DNA of 32,000 nt, from assembly GCF_001306055.1 (NCBI RefSeq), contig NZ_LGHJ01000012.1, forward strand, positions 1 to 32,000, given 5' to 3'. Shown piece after piece: positions 373-20,506 of this stretch; the first letter of the stretch is position 1, and each line of letters opens with the position of its first letter. Origin of the DNA: Bellilinea caldifistulae (lineage in GTDB: Bacteria; Chloroflexota; Anaerolineae; Anaerolineales; Anaerolineaceae). The notes under the pieces are model-generated. The model was not told the origin of the DNA. It ran no database searches and saw only the letters and a program-made list of their open reading frames with translations. Made by a program: the position numbers and the translations under genes.

Positions 373-2916
373 TCACCTTCGCTCGCGGGTGATCAACTCT
401 GCCCAGCGGGCAGCCAGTCCAATCCATTCGATACTGCGGAAGTTCTCCTGCTTCAGCCGGCGGCGAATTTTCTCCACATCGTCCTTTGGCACATCTTTCA
501 ACCGGCTGAGGTGATACTCGGCCAGCCAGTTCCACGGCCCCCACAGCACCTGGATCTGGCCGGCGCGGTTAAGGTCCTCGCCGCTCTTGCGGCGTTCTTC
601 CAGCCTGGCCTGATACAACTCGTGCAGGCGAATCAACTTGCCGATCAGGGCGCGGTTTTCGTGACTTTCCACAATCTGCTTCAGCGTGAGCATCAGCGCA
701 TGGGCAGTATCTTCCTCTTCCTCCGCGTCTGCATGAAAGCCGAAACGTTCCCACGCCAGCGGCATTCTCAGAAAACTGAGCGCGTCCTTCTGCCGCTCTA
801 TACCGTTCTTCGCCCAACGGTGGTGTTTGGCCTGATCCTCGGCCGCGCCGGCTTCCTCAGCCGCCTGATAGAGCGGGTACTTACCACCCACCAGCACAAT
901 CCCTCCGCTGGGGTGAATATCGGGGTGACCGCCGGTAAAGCGGTTCAAATCGTGGCGCAGGCGCATGGCAAATTCCACCACCATATCCCAACTACCGACG
1001 AAGAACAGGTCATCGCCGCCGGAGTAAATTGAATACAGCCGTTGACTTTCCTCCTCGTTCATCTGGCGGGCAATTTCCCCCACCCAACCCTCGAAGAAAA
1101 GACTGACCGCGAAACTGAGCGAGGCAATCCGCGAGAGTGTGGCGCGCTCCTGCAATCCCTCGGCAAAGATCTTGCCAAGGTTGTCCACATCCATGCGCAG
1201 CACACCCAGCCGTTTGATGCCCCTGGCCTGCGCTTCCAGCACATTAAGCGGTTTGACTGAACCGGGCACCGGCAGTTGATCCACCTTGCCGCGCAGACCG
1301 GCATGTTCCCTTTCGCTGAGAATGGGCGTCACATTGACCAGCAGATAGCGCGCCATGGCACACTGCGGGCGGGGCAGACGGTGATTGAAGGCTTCATCGT
1401 TCAGCGCGAAGAGGATACCGGTCGCCTCGTTTTCCAGCTTTTCCAGCACCTGCACGGCATAACCAAACTGGCGGGTGATTGCCTGCCAGCCGCGGCCGGC
1501 CTGCATTTGAATCTGGGCTGGCGGTTCGCCTTCAACCGGCTGCAAAACAAGGTAGCGGGCTTTGCGCAGCAGTTTACCCAAATCCTCATAGGATTCGCAG
1601 ACCGGGCATTTGTTGACGGTTTCCTCAACCCCCTCATCCACCCGCCTGGGTTTGATGCCGGAATGCTCACGACCGCACACGGCGCACTGCTGAGGTGTGC
1701 TGCCGCCCACGCCGTGCGGCTCAAATACCCGGGCAAGGTCGACTTCCAGTCCTTCTAACCGCTTTAATTTGGCAGCGTTGATCTGTCCGATTAGCCCGTC
1801 CCACTGGTGGCGAATTTCTCCATTGAAGAAGTGCCTGCCGCTCAGGAGGCGCGCCTGCAAAATCAACCCCAGTTCGCCCTGATGTTCGTTAAACAGAGCG
1901 CGGCTGACCTGTGCCTGAATTTCAGGCAGTCTGGCAGCGTCCTCGCGCCGGGCAATCAGGTAAAAATTACCACCGCCGACGTAAATCAGGCTGGTTACCG
2001 GCAGGTGAAGTTGATCCAGTACATAACGGGCAATCACCAGCCCCAGCAACTGCAGGTAGAACGAACGCCCGCGCAGGCCACTGGCAGCGCCGCGCGCCGT
2101 AATGGTGTAAAGGAAACTCTGCACACCGGTCAGATCGCCGCCTACCAGGGTCACCAGATCATCCTCCACCCTTTCCGGCTGCTGAGCAAAGGCAGCCAGC
2201 TGTTCATCACTCAACGAGGGCGAATCGTAAAGAGCGACTGCCAGGGCAGCCGTCATGCGGCTGTGGTCATACAGGCTGATATCCGGGCGGCTTTTGTAAT
2301 ACGCCGAAGGCACGCACCACAGAAAGTGCTGCATTTCCGCCAGCAGGCTTTCGAGGTAGTAGGCAATATCGCCATCATTCTGGTAAGCGGTTTTTAATTT
2401 TTCCGCCTGAGCCACAAAGCCGCCGTAAAGTTTTTCATATTCCTTCCATAACTCCCCACCGTAGTCCTTTTCGGGAAAAAGATGGGTTTTGCTCAGTTCC
2501 AGCGTCTTGAGCGGCCAGTAAACCTGCGGCACTTCGTCTTCTCCCGCTTCCAGGCGCACATCGGAGAAAATGGAAAGCAAACGGGCGGGTTGTTTTTCAC
2601 GCTGAGAATCGTCAGACAGGCTGTCCGCTCGCTCACCGGCCGATAGGCGGTCGGCCAGTGCTACGGCGCTGGCCAGCCGGTCGTGCGGGCGATGGTGCTT
2701 GCCGATGGCAAACTTGACCTGCCCCTGCCACTGCGGCGGCAGGTAACGCTCGGCAAAATCCTCACTCAGCAGAGCATGTTTGTATTTGTAGTCCTGCTCC
2801 GCCTGCCTGTCCCAACTGCGGCTGGCACCCTCTGCGCCTCCCCGCAGGGCGAACTTGCCGATGTCGTGCAATAGACCGGCCAGCGCTGCCAGAAAAACCT
2901 GTTCTTTTTGCTCCAT
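373..2916 (-). CDS. cas10: Cas10 (Csm1-like type III CRISPR signature protein) with HD nuclease and GGDD cyclase motifs
   Basis: 847-aa ORF. N-terminal HD motif LLHDIGKF (HD codons at nt 2863-2868) plus GKHH. Palm1-type motifs GGDLTGVQSFLY and LRGRSFYL. Four-Cys module CAVCGRE-(22 aa)-CPVCES. Cyclase motif YSGGDDLFFVG (GGDD = nt 1009-1020). AAGGAGGG SD lies upstream of the ATG at 2916. Confidence 0.9.
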   Translation of the reverse strand: MEQKEQVFLAALAGLLHDIGKFALRGGAEGASRSWDRQAEQDYKYKHALLSEDFAERYLPPQWQGQVKFAIGKHHRPHDRLASAVALADRLSAGERADSLSDDSQREKQPARLLSIFSDVRLEAGEDEVPQVYWPLKTLELSKTHLFPEKDYGGELWKEYEKLYGGFVAQAEKLKTAYQNDGDIAYYLESLLAEMQHFLWCVPSAYYKSRPDISLYDHSRMTAALAVALYDSPSLSDEQLAAFAQQPERVEDDLVTLVGGDLTGVQSFLYTITARGAASGLRGRSFYLQLLGLVIARYVLDQLHLPVTSLIYVGGGNFYLIARREDAARLPEIQAQVSRALFNEHQGELGLILQARLLSGRHFFNGEIRHQWDGLIGQINAAKLKRLEGLEVDLARVFEPHGVGGSTPQQCAVCGREHSGIKPRRVDEGVEETVNKCPVCESYEDLGKLLRKARYLVLQPVEGEPPAQIQMQAGRGWQAITRQFGYAVQVLEKLENEATGILFALNDEAFNHRLPRPQCAMARYLLVNVTPILSEREHAGLRGKVDQLPVPGSVKPLNVLEAQARGIKRLGVLRMDVDNLGKIFAEGLQERATLSRIASLSFAVSLFFEGWVGEIARQMNEEESQRLYSIYSGGDDLFFVGSWDMVVEFAMRLRHDLNRFTGGHPDIHPSGGIVLVGGKYPLYQAAEEAGAAEDQAKHHRWAKNGIERQKDALSFLRMPLAWERFGFHADAEEEEDTAHALMLTLKQIVESHENRALIGKLIRLHELYQARLEERRKSGEDLNRAGQIQVLWGPWNWLAEYHLSRLKDVPKDDVEKIRRRLKQENFRSIEWIGLAARWAELITRERR

Positions 2917-2936
2917 TCATGCCCTCCTTTTTTGGT

Positions 2937-3007
2937 AAAAAAAGCACTGCTGGCAGCCGGGTTCCCCTCGGCTGCCCCCTGCAACCGCCACCGTCTGTCA
3001 GCAGTGC
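2937..3007 (-). terminator. Intrinsic terminator / attenuator between the CARF-HTH gene and cas10
   Basis: On the minus strand, GCACTGCT (3007-3000) pairs with AGCAGTGC (2951-2944). This outer stem encloses an inner 8-bp hairpin GGCAGCCG/CGGCTGCC (2976-2969 / 2959-2952). T7 (2943-2937) follows immediately. The cas10 SD and ATG follow within about 20 nt. Confidence 0.55.
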
Positions 3008-3025
3008 ATTTTGATTGTAGGTCGT

Positions 3026-3910
3026 TCAAGGGGAATTGTCATGCGGGTTTTCCCCTAATTTATTCGCAAAATACAACTGCAACAATGCCACCAACTGAGT
3101 GCGGTTGACACTCTCCATCTCCCAGTGCATGGCGGCTTTGCCGTAAGCAGCACGCAGGTGCTGCTCCACCGTGCGCGGTGAAAGGTACAGGTGAGCGGCA
3201 ATCTCGCGGTCGCTCCATCCGGTGGTGACCAGCGTTTCCACCACCTGCCGCTCGGCTGGGGTTAAGGTCCCCATCACAAAACTGTGAATCTCTTCACGGC
3301 GGCGCTCGAATTGCAGGCGGCGGATGGCTTGCAGCGCTGCCCACGGGTCGGGGATCCCGCGCAGACTCAACCAGGCCGGCGAAAGTTCACCCCAGCGCAC
3401 CACCGGAATGGAAGCCAGCTGCACCGCATCACCCGGCTGGGGGTGCAATCGCTTGCTGGTCAAAAAGTCGCCTGTGGAGTACAAATGCCACAGGCGATCT
3501 TCTTCATCGAACAACATTTGAGCCGCTACCATGCCGAAAATGGACATCGTCTTACGTCCGCCGGCAACCAGCAGGTGAACGGTTTCACCCCTGGATTTGG
3601 CATGGGCAATCCGTTGGTAAATCAAGCGCAGCACAGCCTCTCCGGCAGCACGGCTTTCGGTATCCGCAAAGGGCTTGCCATTCCCCTCCAGAGGGAGGAA
3701 AACAAAGGGGATGGGCGGGCTGGCATAATCGGCCGCAGCCGATTTCAAACGCACCAGAGCCTCCTCAATCGGCGTGCCGGGTGCACTGGTATGGACTATC
3801 TCCACTCGCTGAATGTCAATCCCATCGGCGCGCAGCAAATCCAGCCCGGCGGTGACCACCTGCGGTTCACTGCCCAGCGTTGCAATCAGGATGGGAACTT
3901 GATGAATCAT
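3026..3910 (-). CDS. CARF domain (NE0113/Cas_NE0113-like) fused to a LuxR/GerE-type HTH; putative cyclic-oligoadenylate-responsive transcription factor
   Basis: 294 aa. The N-terminus ILIATLGSEPQVVT and the motif LLVAGGRKTM match my recollection of the NE0113-family CARF signatures (GxSPQVVTE and GGRKTM). The C-terminus LTPAERQVVETLVTTGWSDREIAAHLYLSPRTVEQHLRAAYGK is a classic GerE/LuxR helix-turn-helix. No HEPN R-x4-6-H motif was seen. Confidence 0.8.
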   Translation of the reverse strand: MIHQVPILIATLGSEPQVVTAGLDLLRADGIDIQRVEIVHTSAPGTPIEEALVRLKSAAADYASPPIPFVFLPLEGNGKPFADTESRAAGEAVLRLIYQRIAHAKSRGETVHLLVAGGRKTMSIFGMVAAQMLFDEEDRLWHLYSTGDFLTSKRLHPQPGDAVQLASIPVVRWGELSPAWLSLRGIPDPWAALQAIRRLQFERRREEIHSFVMGTLTPAERQVVETLVTTGWSDREIAAHLYLSPRTVEQHLRAAYGKAAMHWEMESVNRTQLVALLQLYFANKLGENPHDNSP

Positions 3911-3959
3911 CAGATTACCCAGAATGACAGGTTCGAAAGAACACCCCGAAACTTTTCTT

Positions 3960-3986
3960 ATTATACAGGAAATGGTTATTTGTAAA
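3960..3986 (-). promoter_or_regulatory. Candidate sigma70-type promoter for the CARF-HTH gene
   Basis: The minus strand reads TTTACA-aataaccatttcctg-TATAAT, a 15-nt spacer with TG abutting the -10. It can alternatively be read as TTTACA-N17-ATAATA with an extended TGn. It sits about 45 nt upstream of the ATG at 3910. Sequence pattern only. Confidence 0.3.
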
Positions 3987-4085
3987 ACCTTAAAATACTA
4001 AAATCTTACCAGGCTGATGTACCGAAATACACCCTTTGAACCGGTTATCCTGCATTGCTGGGGGTTTGCCAAACTGATCCCATAT

Positions 4086-4907
4086 CGCCCCCTTCTGGAG
4101 TTGGAACCCGCCCAAAAAACAGAGGCGACGACGGGACATCGCCCCCTTCTGGGGGTTTGAACCCGTCCAAAAAACAGAGGCGACGACGGGACATCGCCCC
4201 CTTCGGGGGGTTTGAACCCGTCCAAAAAACAGAGGCGACGACGGGACATCGCCCCCTTGTGGGGGTTTGAACCCGTCCAAAAAACAGAGGCGACGACGGG
4301 ACATCGCCCCCTTCTGGGGGTTTGAACCCGCCCAAAAAACAGAGGCGACGACGGGACATCGCCCCCTTGTGGGGGTTTGAACCCGTCCAAAAAACAGAGG
4401 CGACGACGGGACATCGCCCCCTTCGGGGGGTTTGAACCCGTCCAAAAAAACAGAGGCGACGACGGGACATCGCCCCCTTCTGGGGGTTTGAACCCGTCCA
4501 AAAAAAAGAGGCGACGACGGGACATCGCCCCTTTCTGGGGGTTTGAACCCGTCCAAAAAAAAGAGGCGACGACGAGACATCGCCCCCTTCTGGGGGTTTG
4601 AACCCGTCCAAAAAAAAGAGGCGACGACGGGACATCGCCCCCTTCGGGGGGTTTGAACCCGTCCAAAAAACAGAGGCGACGACGGGACATCGCCCCCTTC
4701 TGGGGGTTTGAACCCGCCCAAAAAACAGAGGCGACGACGGGACATCGCCCCCTTCGGGGGGTTTGAACCCGCCCAAAAAACAGAGGCGACGACGGGACAT
4801 CGCCCCCTTCGGGGGGTTTGAACCCGTCCAAAAAACAGAGGCGACGACGGGACATCGCCCCCTTCGGGGGGTTTGAACCCGTCCAAAAAACAGAGGCGAC
4901 GACGGGA
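4086..4907. repeat. Tandem array of 15 x 55-bp units derived from the tRNA-Cys 3' half (T-arm + acceptor 3' strand) with an inserted GC hairpin
   Basis: Unit starts (cgccccc) are at 4086, 4140, 4195, 4250, 4305, 4360, 4415, 4471, 4526, 4581, 4636, 4691, 4746, 4801 and 4856. The period is 55, with one 54 and one 56. Plus-strand unit: cgcccccttcNgggggtttgaacccgtccaaaaaacagaggcgacgacgggacat. The last unit runs seamlessly into the tRNA-Cys 3' end (shared 17 nt, 4891-4907). A decayed partial copy lies at 4058-4085. Confidence 0.95.
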
Positions 4908-4964
4908 TTTGAACCCGTGATCAGGGTTTTGCAGACCCTTGCCTTACCACTTGGCCACGTCGCC
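4894..4964 (-). tRNA. tRNA-Cys (anticodon GCA)
   Basis: The reverse complement folds as GGCGACG-TG-GCC-AAGTGGTAA-GGC-A-AGGGT-CTGCAAA-ACCCT-GATC-ACGGG-TTCAAAT-CCCGT-CGTCGCC-T. It has a 7-bp acceptor stem, a GCA anticodon and a U73 discriminator, as expected for tRNA-Cys. CCA is not encoded. Confidence 0.9.
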
Positions 4965-4980
4965 TTACCTTGCAACTGTC

Positions 4981-5009
4981 ATTTTACTCAACAACCCGGC
5001 TTTGGTCAA
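4981..5009 (-). promoter_or_regulatory. Candidate promoter for tRNA-Cys (and the downstream repeat array)
   Basis: The minus strand reads TTGACC (5009-5004), N17, TAAAAT (4986-4981). The tRNA 5' end lies 16 nt downstream of the -10. Confidence 0.5.
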
Positions 5010-5017
5010 GCCAAACC

Positions 5018-6460
5018 TTAAATAACCAGCAAGTCCATAAATTCATTCACCGGCAAGCCATTCAACCGCTCGGCATCCTGACAAACTTTTAAAATCAGTC
5101 CAGCCTGTTTTGGTGGGAAGCGCCGCGCCAGGTTGGTTTTGAACTTCTCAATCAACAGAGGCACACCCTCTGCCCGCCGTCGGCGATGACCAATCGGGTA
5201 TTCCACCACGACCTGCTCCGTGTGGCTGCCATCGCGGAAGAACACCTGCACGGCATTGGCTATCGAGCGTTTGGCCGGGTCCAGGTAATCCTTGCTGAAT
5301 TGGGGATTCTCCACCACTTCCATCTTTTCCCGCAAGGCATCAATGCGCGGGTCCGCGGCCACTTCGTCTTCATAGTGACGAGCGGTCAGTTCACCAAAAA
5401 TCAAACCGACGGCGGTCATGTATTGAATGCAGTGATCGCGGTCGGCCGGGTTGTAGAGCGGTCCGCGCTTGTCAATGATACGAATGGCCGACTCATGGGT
5501 GGTGATGACCACTTTCTCCACCTCATCCAGCCGCTCCCGCACCAGTGGATGGAGCTGAAAAGCCGCCTCAACCGCCGTTTGGGCGTGAAATTCGGCCGGG
5601 AAGGAAATTTTGAACAGCACATTCTCCATCACATACGAGCCGAACGGCTGAGGCAGTTTGAAAGGCTGCCCGCGAAACAGGACATCATAAAACCCCCAGG
5701 TTTTTGCGCTCAACGCCGAGGGATAGCCCATCTCGCCCTTAATTGCCATCAGCGCCAGACGTACCCCTCGGCTGGTAGCATCCCCGGCTGCCCATGATTT
5801 CCGTGATCCGGTATTGGGCGCATGCCGATAGGTACGCAGCGGATGACCATCAATGAAGGCATTGGAAAGCGCGTTAATCACCTCATCCCTTGTACCGCCC
5901 AGCATCGCAGTCACCACCGCCGTGCTGGCCACTTTGACCAGAATGACATGGTCCAAACCGACCCGGTTAAAACTGTTTTCCAGCGCCATCACGCCTTGAA
6001 TTTCGTGGGCTTTGATCATGGCGGTCAACACGTCCCGCATGATTAACGGCTTTTTGCCATTAGCCACCGCCGTGCGCGAAAGCCAGTCGGCTGTCGCCAG
6101 AATGCCGCCAAGATTATCCGAAGGATGCCCCCATTCGGCTGCCAGCCAGGTGTCGTTATAGTCCAGCCAGCGGATCATTGCTCCGATGTTAAAGGCAGCG
6201 CTGACCGGATCCAGCACATACGGTGTGCCCGGCACCCGCGCCCCGTTGGGTACAATGGTCCCCGGCACCAGCGGGCCAAGTAATTTTGTACAGGCAGGAT
6301 AGGAAAGCGCCTCAAACCCACAGCCGAGGGTATCCATCAGGCACAGACGGGCCGTTTCGTAAGCCTCCGCGCTGGAGATGGGCGTATTCAAGGTGTAATC
6401 GGCAATTTGTACCAGCACATCATCCGGCTGGGGACGGATATTGCTCACCGTTTCGCTCAT
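5018..6460 (-). CDS. prpD: 2-methylcitrate dehydratase (MmgE/PrpD family)
   Basis: 480 aa. The conserved stretch [24 protein letters not shown] is typical of PrpD. It is the last gene of a prpB-prpC-prpD arrangement. Confidence 0.9.
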
Positions 6461-6484
6461 GGATGGCTTCCGTTCAGAGATATT

Positions 6485-7642
6485 TCAGATGCGCTTTTCA
6501 ATCGGGACATACTCACGCGGATCTGGGCCAATGTAATTGGCTGACGGACGGATGATCTTACCGTCCTGACGCTGCTCAATAATGTGAGCAGCCCAGCCAG
6601 CTGTCCTGGACATGACAAAAAGCGGCGTGAACATGAAGGTCGGTATACCCAACATGTGATAAACCACAGCGCTGTACCAGTCGAGATTGGGGAACATACG
6701 TTTCTGCTCCCACATCACATCTTCAATTTTCTCGGCAATGTCGCACATGGTTTCATCGCCAAAATCCTTGCACAGAGAGCAGGAAAGCCCTTTGAGAATC
6801 TTGGCCCGCGGGTCCGAAATGGTATACACCGGATGCCCAAATCCAAGAATAATCCCTTTATTCTCCAAAATGCGCCGGACATCCTCCGCTGCTTCTTCGG
6901 GAGACTTGTACCGCTCGATGACCTCCATCGCTCCCTCATTGGCACCGCCGTGCTTAAAGCCTTTCAGTGCGCCAATTGCCCCGGTAATTGCCGAATAAAT
7001 GTCCGAACCCGTGCCGGCAATCACCCGGCTGGTGAAGGTTGAGGCGTTGAATTCGTGCTCGGCATAGAGAATCAGGGTGATATCCAATGCCCTTTCATGT
7101 AATTCGCTGGGTTTACGCCCATGCAACAGGTGTAAAAAGTGACCGGCAATCGTATCATCATCGGTTTCCACCTCAATCCGCCGGCCGTGGTGCGAATAAT
7201 GAAACCAGTAGGTCAACATCGAGGGGAAAACGGCCAGCAGACGGTCGGCAATATGGCGCGCACCTTCAACCGGGTGATCCTCCCGCTCCGGAAGGGTCGC
7301 TCCCAAAATGGAACAACCGGTGCGCAGCACGTCCATCGGGTGGGCTGCCGCCGGAATTTGTTCCAGCACAGCCTTGACCGGCGCAGGTAAGCCGCGCAGT
7401 GTTTTCAGCCTCCGTTTGTAGCGCTCGAACTCGTTGGCAACCGGCAATTTTTCATAAATTAACAGGTAGGCTACCTCTTCGAAGGTCGAATATTCGGCTA
7501 AATCATTGATATCATAGCCACGGTAACGCAGGTCATGCCCCAGTGTCCCCACCGTACAGATTGCGGTATTACCCGCCGGCACTCCCGAAAGGGCTACTGA
7601 TTTCTTTTTGACTTCCTTTTTTTCCACCACCTGATCACTCAT
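6485..7642 (-). CDS. prpC: 2-methylcitrate synthase / citrate synthase family
   Basis: Citrate synthase motifs are present ([14 protein letters not shown]; [10 protein letters not shown]). The start was trimmed to MSDQVV at 7642, which overlaps the prpB stop (GATGAGTGA) and follows a GGAGAGGAGAG SD. The methylcitrate assignment rests on operon context. Confidence 0.85.
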
Positions 7643-8531
7643 CGTCTCTCCTCTCCTTGGCAAAAAGTTGATCGAGTTTCTGTTCGTAAGCGTAATAGTT
7701 CAAAACCTCATACAATTCAGCCCGTGTCTGCATCAGGTCCAGCACCGTCTGTTGGGTTCCCTCACGCCGGATGGTTTGATACACCTTGACTGCCGCTGCG
7801 CTCATCGCCCGAAAGGCAGAAAGCGGGTATAAGACAATATCCACACCGACCTCAGCCAGCTGCCGGGTAGAAAACAGGGGGGTTTTGCCAAATTCGGTCA
7901 TGTTCGCCAGAATTGGAACACCGCTAACCCGCTTGAATTCACGGTACATCTCAAGGTCAGTTACCGCCTCGGCAAAAATCATATCTGCGCCGGCTTCCAC
8001 ATAACGCCGGCTGCGCTCCAACGCCGATTCCAGTCCCTCGACGGCCAGCGCATCTGTCCGCGCCATAATCACAAAAGACGGATCGGTGCGCGCATCCACC
8101 GCTGCCTTGATCCGGTCTTCCATCTCCTCCGGCGCAACCAGAGCTTTACCGGGACGATGGCCGCAGCGTTTTGCCTGCACCTGATCTTCCATGTGGATTG
8201 CAGCCGCCCCGGCTTTAATGAGCGAACGAACCGTGCGAGCGATGTTGAAGGCACTCCCAAAACCGGTATCCACATCCACCAGCAAAGGCAACGGGCAGGC
8301 ATCTGTTATACGCCGTGTATCTATCAAAACGTCCTCTAAAGTGGTGATACCCAGATCAGGAACCCCCAATGAAGCAGCTGCAACTCCCCCACCAGAAAGA
8401 TAAATCGCCCGAAATCCAGCCCTTTCTGCCAGCAAAGCAGCATAGGCATTAATCACTCCTACTACCTGTAAAGGTCTTTCATTTTGAACGGCCTCCCGAA
8501 AGCGCTGACCGGCAGAGGGAGATGATGGCAC
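7635..8531 (-). CDS. prpB: Methylisocitrate lyase (PEP mutase/isocitrate lyase superfamily)
   Basis: 298 aa with PrpB-like motifs: [33 protein letters not shown]. The GTG start at 8531 is preceded by AGGAGGT. Confidence 0.9.
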
Positions 8532-20311: not shown

Positions 20312-20406
20312 GGGGAGGTGCCAGAGTGGTCGAATGGGGCCGCCTGCTAAGCGGTTGTCGGGGCTATAAACCTCGACCGCGGGTTCGAATCCCGCCCTCC
20401 CCGCCA
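20312..20406 (+). tRNA. tRNA-Ser (anticodon GCT), CCA encoded
   Basis: The sequence is GGGGAGG-TG-CCAGAGTGGTCGAATGG...GCCGC-CTGCTAA-GCGGT-long variable arm-GCGGG-TTCGAAT-CCCGC-CCTCCCC-G-CCA. All stems pair. Confidence 0.9.
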
Positions 20407-20506
20407 GCACAACCTTCGACCGCGCGCCCCCATCAGGGGGTGATATTCGCATCCCACCCTCCCCGCCAGCACAACCTTCGATCGCGCCCCCCCATCAGGG
20501 GGTATT
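20383..20506 (+). repeat. 62-bp tandem duplication of the tRNA-Ser(GCT) 3' end plus a downstream GC hairpin
   Basis: Copy A, 20383-20444: gttcgaatcccgccctccccgccagcacaaccttcgaccgcgcgcccccatcagggggtgat. Copy B, 20445-20506: attcgcatcccaccctccccgccagcacaaccttcgatcgcgcccccccatcagggggtatt. Copy A includes the true tRNA T-loop/acceptor end. Copy B is a slightly decayed ghost. Confidence 0.85.

Follow-up and report, generated by a model that had tools for sequence, protein, structure and literature searches.

The locus considered here raises the question of how a 55-bp sequence, built in part from a tRNA gene, came to be repeated behind that gene, and what the repeats might do. It lies in the first 32,000 nucleotides of contig NZ_LGHJ01000012.1 of Bellilinea caldifistulae (assembly GCF_001306055.1; Chloroflexota, class Anaerolineae), the stretch referred to below as the window, and adjoins the tRNA-Cys(GCA) gene on the minus strand. 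The repeated element is a pseudo-copy of the 3′ part of the tRNA gene that closes the transcription unit, and the copies follow one another head-to-tail, each together with the trailer. With moderate confidence, we take it to be a tRNA-derived repeat resembling the RtT repeats of the Escherichia coli tyrT locus, probably amplified by unequal recombination and acting as a series of transcription terminators. An earlier sequence-only reading had described the array from its letters, and its structural account was largely right, down to the positions of the variants.

The tRNA-Cys array and its units

The features of the array, all on the minus strand, are as follows.

4894-4964, minus strand: tRNA-Cys(GCA) gene, 71 nt (ARAGORN; Rfam tRNA, 70.4 bits)
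4981-5009, minus strand: promoter-like TTGACC-17-TAAAAT, 16 nt upstream of tRNA-Cys (pattern match)
4123-4893, minus strand: 14 complete units, 13 of 55 nt and unit 9 of 56 nt
4839-4893, minus strand: unit 1, the worked example, with the trailer at 4883-4893 and the copy of nt 49-59 at 4872-4882; in its second half, the hairpin and tail module at 4853-4871 and the copy of nt 60-73 at 4839-4852
4084-4122, minus strand: truncated and most diverged last unit, 39 nt, made of the trailer, GCGGGTTCCAA, CTCCAGAAGGGGG and CGAT
4058-4083, minus strand: possible decayed remnant or ancestral flank (ATGGGATCAGTTTGGCAAACCCCCAG), of weak unit likeness as judged by eye

The 55-bp array (4084-4893) begins directly after U73, the discriminator and last base of tRNA-Cys(GCA), a gene that does not encode CCA; its 3′ boundary is set at 4893 or 4894 by ARAGORN and Rfam. 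The direct repeats start in tandem at this 3′ end and share the orientation of the gene. Tandem Repeats Finder (TRF) reports a period of 55 at 4084-4907, with 15.0 copies, 96% matches and a score of 1499, the copy figure including the last 14 nt of tRNA-Cys itself. The promoter-like site upstream matches 10 of 12 consensus positions and is a candidate by pattern.

In tRNA sense, each complete unit reads CTGTTTTTTGG-ACGGGTTCAAA-CCCCC(N)GAAGGGGGCGATG-TCCCGTCGTCGCCT. The first element, CTGTTTTTTGG, is the tRNA's own U-rich trailer (CTGT6GG), and ACGGGTTCAAA is the 5′ part of a pseudo T-arm, copied from tRNA nt 49-59. It is followed by a 19-nt module composed of a hairpin and a tail (CCCCC-N4-GGGGG and CGATG), after which TCCCGTCGTCGCCT continues with a copy of nt 60-73. 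Within a complete unit, a structured insertion therefore parts the T-stem 5′ strand and the opening of the T-loop from the tRNA 3′ segment. The unit alignment bears out the anatomy given in the sequence-only reading (T-stem 5′ strand with six loop nucleotides, insertion, T-stem and acceptor 3′ strands, U73 and a U-rich linker), and it places the 19-nt insertion recognised there between A59 and U60. The resemblance that had been noted between GGCGATG and the acceptor 5′ strand GGCGACG is also exact to one base. Where 0.06 occurrences of the hairpin pattern CCCCCNNNNGGGGG would be expected in the window, there are 15, of which 13 lie in the tRNA-Cys array and two at a tRNA-Ser gene described below.

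The count of fifteen units that had been proposed holds for the 14 complete ones, whereas the fifteenth is truncated. This unit ends after ...GGGGGCGAT, lacks the tRNA 3′ part, and marks the end of the array. The 3′-terminal tRNA segment thus closes 14 of the 15 units as TCCCGTCGTCGCCT, one of these reading TCTCGT... instead. Decay had been placed at the end distal to the tRNA, and the last unit is indeed the most diverged, but the supposed remnant at 4058-4083 resembles a unit only weakly (CAGTTTGG-CAAACCCCCAG). This stretch is conserved in L004 and L126 (L-numbers are labels of the individual loci or records compared).

Variation between units sits where it had been reported, in the hairpin loop (CGAA, AGAA or ACAA in tRNA sense) and in the length of the T-run. 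Two substitutions were recovered as well, GGACGGG to GGGCGGG in four units and TCCCGT to TCTCGT in one unit, and both yield a G-U pair in tRNA sense. Such G-U-preserving variants comprise only two site types and are too few to prove selection on RNA.

The T-loop of each copy is split by a stem-loop, and the copy therefore cannot fold as a tRNA. The units are not detectably tRNA-like, as none of them matched the Rfam tRNA model even at E ≤ 10. Across the array, Rfam at the gathering threshold and at E ≤ 10 returned the real tRNA and noise, and ARAGORN likewise returned the genuine gene only.

The array in independent assemblies

The genome of B. caldifistulae GOMI-1 is a single scaffold of 3,698,317 bp, assembled with SPAdes from MiSeq 2x250 and mate-pair reads (PMC4574363). 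Since this is a short-read assembly and the near-identical repeats cover 0.8 kb, neither the copy number nor the order of the variant units is trustworthy. The repeat itself exists in independent assemblies. The Logan short-read assembly breaks at both edges of the array, ending in ...ACGGGTTCAAAT and restarting at CGTCGTCGCCTCTG... of the last unit, and a 571-kb metagenome contig of a related strain (L126) ends inside the array at the same locus. On the L126 contig, at least three complete units can be recognised, along with a last unit truncated as in the window, the distal junction GGGGGCGAT|ATGGGATCAG shared with the window and an identical gene downstream. The variants among its units are not those of the window, as expected of an array that turns over. 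The tRNA-Cys array is thereby confirmed as a real feature.

Recurrence of the design

The sequence-only reading implied that the array is unique. This does not hold, as the same design is found at tRNA-Ser in the window, at tRNA-Cys and tRNA-Val genes of Anaerolineae, and at E. coli tyrT. The array at tRNA-Ser comprises two features.

20312-20406, plus strand: tRNA-Ser(GCT) gene, the last tRNA of a Ser-Ser pair (ARAGORN, Rfam)
20407-20503, plus strand: second array (TRF period 62, 1.9 copies)

The one full unit of 62 nt consists of GCAC, AACCTTCGACCGCG, CG-CCCCC-ATCA-GGGGG-TGATA and TTCGCATCCCACCCTCCCCGCCA, where AACCTTCGACCGCG is a 14-nt copy of the variable-arm and T-stem 5′ strand of tRNA-Ser and TTCGCATCCCACCCTCCCCGCCA is its last 23 nt. 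The second unit is truncated and ends right after the hairpin; there, TATTAAGTTTT gives it the look of the operon terminator.

Scanning a genome collection with the 24-mer at the 3′ end of tRNA-Cys gave 119 loci, and all titled records among them belong to Anaerolineae or other Chloroflexota. Among 117 Anaerolineae tRNA-Cys loci, about 20 have 1-7 partial copies of the tRNA behind the gene, nearly all of these copies split in the T-loop by a small GC hairpin and some also in the D-loop. The copies often come with the trailer and terminator of the tRNA, in the arrangement tRNA-T-(psi-T)n. One tRNA-Val locus, in L022, also carries a hairpin-split array.

The insertions fall at three sites in the T-arm. 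The first lies between T55 and C56, and the second between A59 and T60 (window, L066, L092, L022, L128). At the third, the two final G of the T-stem 5′ strand (nt 52-53) give way to the insertion (tRNA-Ser in the window, tRNA-Val in L022). Longer copies have a hairpin in the D-loop as well (L044, L061, L075, L088, L114, L128). MAFFT and RNAalifold misaligned the variable hairpins of 14 type-A units and recovered four pairs only, and the hairpins were therefore scored sequence by sequence. A hairpin of at least 4 bp starts from the first inserted base in 23 of 25 independent insertions (shuffles: mean 3.4, maximum 11). The C-rich arm is 5′ in all 25, and a tail of 3-8 nt always separates the hairpin from the resumed tRNA sequence. 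The stems differ across genomes yet remain paired (TCCCC/GGGGA, TACCCC/GGGGTA, CACC/GGTG, CTCC/GGAG, TTCCC/GGGAA, TCCTC/GAGGA).

Some hairpins recur in different loops. The 13-nt hairpin TACC-ATCGA-GGTA stands in the T-loop of L054 and L116 and in the D-loop of L128; more generally, the TACC-ATCGA-GGTA and CCCC-ATCGA-GGGG hairpins occupy the T-loop or the D-loop depending on the genome (L054, L116, L128, L044, L103). In the 0.85 Mb of related DNA scanned, the ATCGA-loop hairpin is confined to pseudo-tRNA contexts. L054 has two modules in one T-loop, both with a CAGG tail. A loose genome-wide search for a C-arm/G-arm hairpin with a tail was swamped by chance matches in GC-rich coding DNA.

In L022, a metagenome-assembled genome of Bellilinea sp. 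(reverse strand, about 3890-7700), the tRNA-Cys gene is followed by 3.7 kb of cargo without an integrase gene, encoding a small helix-turn-helix (HTH) protein, two RibD-C/DHFR-like proteins, a Zn-dependent dehydrogenase and a membrane protein. Beyond the cargo lie a hairpin-split tRNA-Cys copy that runs from the anticodon loop on, and then tRNA-Val(CAC) with its own hairpin-split array. This could be an island that landed before an older array, or a site that marks the end of the island. In L010, L070, L084, L089 and L119, a repeated structured element (GTCATCCTGAGC...CGAAGGATC) is found near tRNA-Cys, sometimes with a central CCCCC-N4-GGGGG hairpin. In L010, palindromic elements of about 110 bp are repeated, and each stops where a decayed copy of the 3′ end of the tRNA lies.

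We found no description of hairpin-split tRNA 3′-part repeats in the literature searched, either in Chloroflexota or as a general class, nor did we find the clade-wide family described there. What the searches for bacterial tRNA-linked, tRNA-derived or partial-tRNA repeats did return were attachment (att) site fragments, CRISPR spacers, the short tandem repeats of Entamoeba, and RtT.

The tyrT repeats of Escherichia coli

The tyrT repeats and the RtT RNA have been known since about 1980 (some 45 years), and are usually viewed as an enterobacterial oddity. The 178-bp repeats and the RNA were reportedly described by Egan and Landy in 1978, Rossi et al. in 1981, and Bosl and Kersten in 1991. We know of no accepted origin or function for them. 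Termination at tyrT has been reported to be Rho-dependent.

In E. coli K-12 (NC_000913.3, 1286000-1288200; L127), TRF reports a 178-bp repeat in 3.1 copies after tyrV. Rfam finds four RtT matches (RF00391) at tyrT-tyrV, one of them in the spacer between the two tRNA genes. Aligned to tRNA-Tyr, the RtT unit comprises the anticodon-stem 3′ strand, the variable arm and AAGGTTCGA (T-stem 5′ strand and T54-A58), then a structured insertion of about 60 nt in the T-loop, and then the end of tRNA-Tyr, AATCCTTCCCCCACCACCA; one further insertion is present in the variable arm. The unit thus holds more of tRNA-Tyr than the textbook "19 nt of 3′ end". The T-loop insertion is a trait derived in the present alignment and not taken from the literature. 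Across 4,738 E. coli genomes, the number of RtT copies varies between 1 and 10, which indicates that such arrays expand and contract. The 1991 paper of Bosl and Kersten is among those cited in PMC3318445.

Folding of the units and predicted transcription termination

The minimum-free-energy fold of a unit in tRNA sense contains a T-arm-like hairpin (GGG-UUCAAAC-CCC, extended by its flanks; ACGGG..CCCC) and a 10-bp hairpin. The latter is formed by GGGGGCGAUG and CGUCGCCUCU around a 6-nt loop and is followed by GUUUUUU, with a run of six to eight U (U6-8) within 2 nt. The 7-bp acceptor-like hairpin put forward in the sequence-only reading extends to 10 bp and runs into U6-8, the signature of an intrinsic terminator. 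The element is best seen across the first two units.

4828-4862, minus strand: terminator-like element across units 1 and 2, with a 10-bp stem (GGGGGCGATG/CGTCGCCTCT), a 6-nt loop, and then GTTTTTTGG

An element of this type recurs in every unit. The 10-bp hairpin has a predicted energy of -15.7 kcal/mol at 37 °C and -10.3 kcal/mol at 55 °C. By a consensus scan, the region 3000-6000 has 27 terminator-like sites, compared with 4.9 ± 2.4 expected for it; 25 of them lie in the array, where 11 use the 10-bp stem and 14 an alternative 7-bp stem. No other terminator was found between tRNA-Cys and the array. The units hold, on the transcribed strand, the GC-rich stem-loop and subsequent U-tract by which intrinsic terminators are defined.

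Based on these observations, the following sequence of events can be proposed. One partial tRNA copy with a hairpin module would have arisen downstream of the gene, and unequal homologous recombination or replication slippage between units would then expand, resize and homogenise the array. Growth of this kind is the standard explanation, and we infer it here as it fits the differences in copy number and the mosaic of variants. The array would be transcribed from the tRNA-Cys promoter as a 3′ trailer. In the transcript, the first half of each unit (ACGGG-UUCAAAC-CCCC) may form the T-arm-like hairpin, and the G-arm and tail of the module (GGGGGCGAUG) may pair with the copied acceptor 3′ strand (CGUCGCCUCU) before U6-8. 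Pairing at this position, just before the U-run, makes each unit a predicted intrinsic terminator. As tRNA-Cys has no other terminator and the next genes are co-directional, the array can be read as an insulating terminator stack, which would stand as a redundant terminator or insulator between a strong tRNA promoter and the CARF-LuxR and cas10 genes. By analogy with RtT RNA, which accumulates in E. coli, RNAs processed from the units may build up as well.

Several points weigh against this explanation. The folding energy of a unit is at best marginally better than that of shuffled sequences (z = -1.7), and 11 of 200 shuffles fold equally well. A competing fold, with the T-stem and the central C5/G5 hairpin, loses only about 2-4 kcal/mol in stability. 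Among the related arrays, about half already have a separate canonical terminator in each unit, so termination cannot be a general reason for the family. The regularities of the modules, and the presence of the same hairpin in T-loops and D-loops, point to an insertion mechanism or a selected structure that lies outside the terminator explanation. No match to the RtT covariance model (RF00391) was found in 3950-5050, even at E ≤ 10, and the kinship with RtT is therefore architectural, of kind and not of descent. Finally, the copy number rests on short reads.

Genomic context

Two genes identified by Pfam scan follow the array.

3026-3910, minus strand: regulator with a CARF domain (Cas_NE0113) and a LuxR-type HTH domain
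373-2916, minus strand: Cas10 with an HD domain

These type III CRISPR-Cas genes (373-3910, minus strand) are directly downstream of the array and co-directional with it. Past cas10, just outside the window start, the scaffold has a gap (an N run of about 1.25 kb), on the far side of which a NACHT gene is found (L003). The tRNA-Cys gene may mark a defence island. On the other side, immediately upstream of the tRNA-Cys promoter, a methylcitrate-cycle set occupies 5018-8531 (minus strand) and encodes PrpD-like dehydratase, citrate-synthase-family, and phosphoenolpyruvate-mutase/isocitrate-lyase-family proteins, an ordinary context.

Alternative explanations

One alternative takes the module, and not the repeat, as the entity to be explained. 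The 17-21-nt GC hairpin and tail modules would be discrete entities, inserted into the elbow loops of tRNA copies by a strand-specific mechanism in several phyla, RtT included, and kept for a role as RNA. The sites would be 55^56 or 59^60 in the T-loop, the border of T-stem and loop, and the D-loop, with each module starting at the junction and no target duplicated. Clean insertion without duplication, the fixed order of hairpin and tail, the restriction to elbow loops, the recurring hairpins and the CAGG tails of L054 together suggest strand-aware insertion into single-stranded loops of a folded tRNA sequence, or else long-term selection on RNA structure; L022 is compatible with both. The role as RNA may be programmed termination or attenuation, or mimicry of the "top half" of a tRNA. 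If true, this would be a new class of tRNA-derived genetic element, and it would explain RtT. We consider this explanation rather unlikely. Another source proposed for the module, a copy of the local terminator hairpin, is suggestive in L022-Val, L092 and L078 and absent in L016 and L054, and was not adopted. Snap-back repair, P-nucleotides, bulge-helix-bulge (BHB) introns, IS200/IS605 elements, IS91/Helitron ends, integron attC sites and tandem T-arm duplication were compared by inspection, and none fits all three insertion types.

The modules and repeats have also been considered as scars left in DNA by a site-specific or loop-targeting mobile process, for which the tRNA T-loop would be the crossover point or target. 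The units would then be miniature att sites (pseudo T-stem, hairpin arm, core), or the module would be a tiny insertion element that lands in loops, and either repeated integration or unequal exchange mediated by a recombinase would make the arrays longer. The junctions are suggestive in this respect: in the T-loop region they fall only within the loop or at its edge (nt 52-53, 55^56, 59^60), there are D-loop insertions too, and the insertions are clean, without target duplication and of fixed polarity. The same hairpin is met in different loops and genomes, and the two modules of L054 share their CAGG tail. At a larger scale, L022 has a hairpin-split copy 3.7 kb beyond tRNA-Cys, past cargo genes, and L010 has several decayed 3′-end copies with different structured DNA before each. 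The tRNA-Cys gene is moreover an island hotspot, with type III CRISPR-Cas and NACHT genes downstream of it in B. caldifistulae and a real island in L058/L077. However, no recombinase, transposase or reverse transcriptase was found beside the arrays, units of 55 bp are far too small for integrative elements, and recombination with the intact gene accounts for the presence or absence of modules in L114. Together with the att and dispersed-element evidence that follows, this makes a mobile process unlikely in our view.

Repeats of tRNA 3′ parts are documented as att sites left by the integrases of phages, integrative and conjugative elements and islands (Reiter 1989 and Williams 2002, through PMC9897764). 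A classical integrated element is available within the clade as a negative control. On one contig (DAOUAC010000008.1; L058/L077), an intact tRNA-Cys gene is followed by foreign DNA, and the far end (L077) carries a tyrosine integrase gene, an uninterrupted 46-nt tRNA-Cys 3′ part and the original terminator, that is, an attR. A genuine attR is therefore uninterrupted, and the view that the array is not a simple att duplication is upheld. Such a duplication was rejected on the 55-bp spacing, the absence of a recombinase in the window, and an identity block split by 19 nt, compared with 46 contiguous nt in L077. Among the ten largest window open reading frames (ORFs), a Pfam scan found housekeeping and cas genes and no recombinase or reverse transcriptase. 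No integrase gene was found in the window or in the first ~3 kb past its start, where the scaffold has its gap. Across the 119 tRNA-Cys loci, an integrase search (regular expressions; phmmer with XerD, lambda Int and gamma-delta resolvase) scored L034 and L077 only.

Three units compared by BLAST with plasmid and phage collections gave no match. The 17-nt core CAAATCCCGTCGTCGCC had two matches in viral contigs, both by chance in high-GC coding regions, and no attP; a 23-mer was found in one metagenome contig only, at the same locus. A dispersed element of the repetitive extragenic palindromic (REP) or miniature inverted-repeat transposable element (MITE) type, which the sequence-only reading had named among the findings that would overturn it, was not found in the sequences covered: in the window the hairpin occurs only at the two tRNA-linked arrays, and the units match neither plasmids nor phages. 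The confinement of the ATCGA-loop hairpin to pseudo-tRNA contexts in the related DNA scanned also indicates that it is no dispersed REP or MITE, which counts against a mobile process as well.

Selection for tRNA-mimic RNAs is a further alternative, which we also regard as improbable. Each unit would yield an RNA of about 55 nt, processed from the tRNA precursor, whose T-arm-like and acceptor-like hairpins would serve as a decoy or sponge for tRNA-binding enzymes or toxins, as a guide, or as a regulator, with the copy number setting the dose. The conservation of the hairpin with different stem sequences across genera is consistent with this, as is its survival in single copies whose tRNA-like parts have decayed (L027, L103, L016). 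The variants within the array give G-U pairs only in the tRNA-sense strand, as do all three non-Watson-Crick pairs of the 10-bp helix, and the E. coli analogue yields a stable RNA, rttR being annotated as a small RNA. Nevertheless, the arrays are absent at ~80% of related tRNA-Cys loci, where present they have anything from 1 to about 15 copies, lineages differ in where the insertion falls and in what the unit contains, and some stem mutations are tolerated (unit 7 of the window; variants in L092). Rfam finds neither a family nor a tRNA-like signal. The modules may furthermore share ancestry, in which case the counts of "covariation" are not independent.

That the assembler inflated or invented a short repeat is very improbable. 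The assembly is made from short reads and has gaps, an N run lies just past the window start, and 0.8 kb exceeds any read; even so, two other assemblies stop at the edges of the array or inside it, the units hold distinct variants, and comparable arrays are present in many unrelated assemblies.

A protein-coding reading of the array was rejected. The array is open in all three tRNA-sense frames (3990-4975, minus strand; 251-325 aa), which is a frame-cycling artefact; a period of 55 is no multiple of 3, and protein homology searches with the array ORFs return translated tRNA-Cys genes only. The 285-aa "protein" called from the array in the public annotation (L001, 7606-8463) has no Pfam match and is spurious.

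Hardest to credit is the view that the array belongs with the type III CRISPR-Cas genes beside it, as an RNA array of CRISPR-like or toxin-antitoxin-like character in which a 30-nt "repeat" (ACGGGTTCAAA, hairpin and CGATG) would alternate with a 25-nt "spacer" that would match tRNA-Cys: the repeat-spacer geometry ends in a degenerate repeat, cas10 and the CARF regulator lie within 1.2 kb in the same orientation, and the neighbourhood is the same in the related strain L126, but all "spacers" are identical (which upholds the earlier dismissal of a CRISPR array), related arrays adjoin unrelated genes, the tRNA-Ser array of the window has no cas neighbours, and the downstream gene encodes Cas_NE0113 (CARF) and a LuxR HTH and no ToxN/AbiQ-type toxin.

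Comparison with known systems

Like a CRISPR array, the tRNA-Cys array is regularly spaced, has a hairpin within its "repeat", closes with a degenerate one and lies close to cas genes. It differs in that its "spacers" derive from the neighbouring tRNA, in its lack of a leader and of adaptation logic, and in the occurrence of the same design without cas genes.

Short non-canonical tRNA introns have reportedly been described in Crenarchaeota at T-loop and D-loop positions (Sugahara in 2008, Fujishima in 2010). These resemble the modules as clean insertions of tens of nucleotides in the T-loop or D-loop, and related inserts recur at more than one position. The hosts of archaeal introns are functional genes of full length, and the introns form a BHB motif and are spliced out, whereas the Bellilinea host copies have no working 5′ half and show no BHB motif by inspection. 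To our knowledge, bacteria do not possess the splicing endonuclease.

As in attL/attR pairs, a direct repeat of the tRNA 3′ part lies downstream of an intact gene, and the T-loop is a classical crossover sublocation; tRNA-Cys also serves as an integration site in the clade (L058/L077). Real att repeats, however, are uninterrupted and bracket kilobases of DNA including an integrase gene, while the ~15 Bellilinea repeats are 55 bp apart and split by hairpins.

The units are like intrinsic terminators, among them those that stand in tandem behind stable-RNA genes, in their 10-bp GC-rich stem, 6-nt loop and U6-8, and in their position after a strongly transcribed gene and before co-directional genes. 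They are unlike ordinary terminators in that the 3′ arm of the stem copies the tRNA acceptor 3′ strand, and in their roughly 15-fold repetition.

The closest parallel is RtT. Both are tandem direct repeats that share the orientation of the last tRNA gene and set in at its end, each unit closes with the 3′-terminal segment of the tRNA, and the T-stem 5′ strand with the first T-loop bases is set off by a structured T-loop insertion. Copy number is polymorphic in both, and in both, the annotation places doubtful small ORFs on the repeats (tpr in E. coli, the 285-aa call in Bellilinea). On the other hand, the Bellilinea unit has 55 bp compared with 178 bp, its insertion 19 nt compared with about 60 nt, and the array about 15 copies compared with 3-4. 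There is no similarity in sequence or covariance model, the tRNA is Cys without an encoded CCA in place of Tyr, and the Bellilinea unit is itself a predicted hairpin and U-run terminator. The RtT-like design is thus now found in a distant phylum (Chloroflexota, class Anaerolineae), at three tRNAs, in many genomes and in a far smaller 55-nt form; this spread suggests that some process recurs, or that selection acts, at the gene for the final tRNA of an operon. In practice, arrays of this type interrupt short-read assemblies, spawn spurious ORFs, and may pass for att sites, CRISPR arrays or tRNA pseudogenes. The Bellilinea array offers a minimal model in which termination, processing and copy-number dynamics could be studied.

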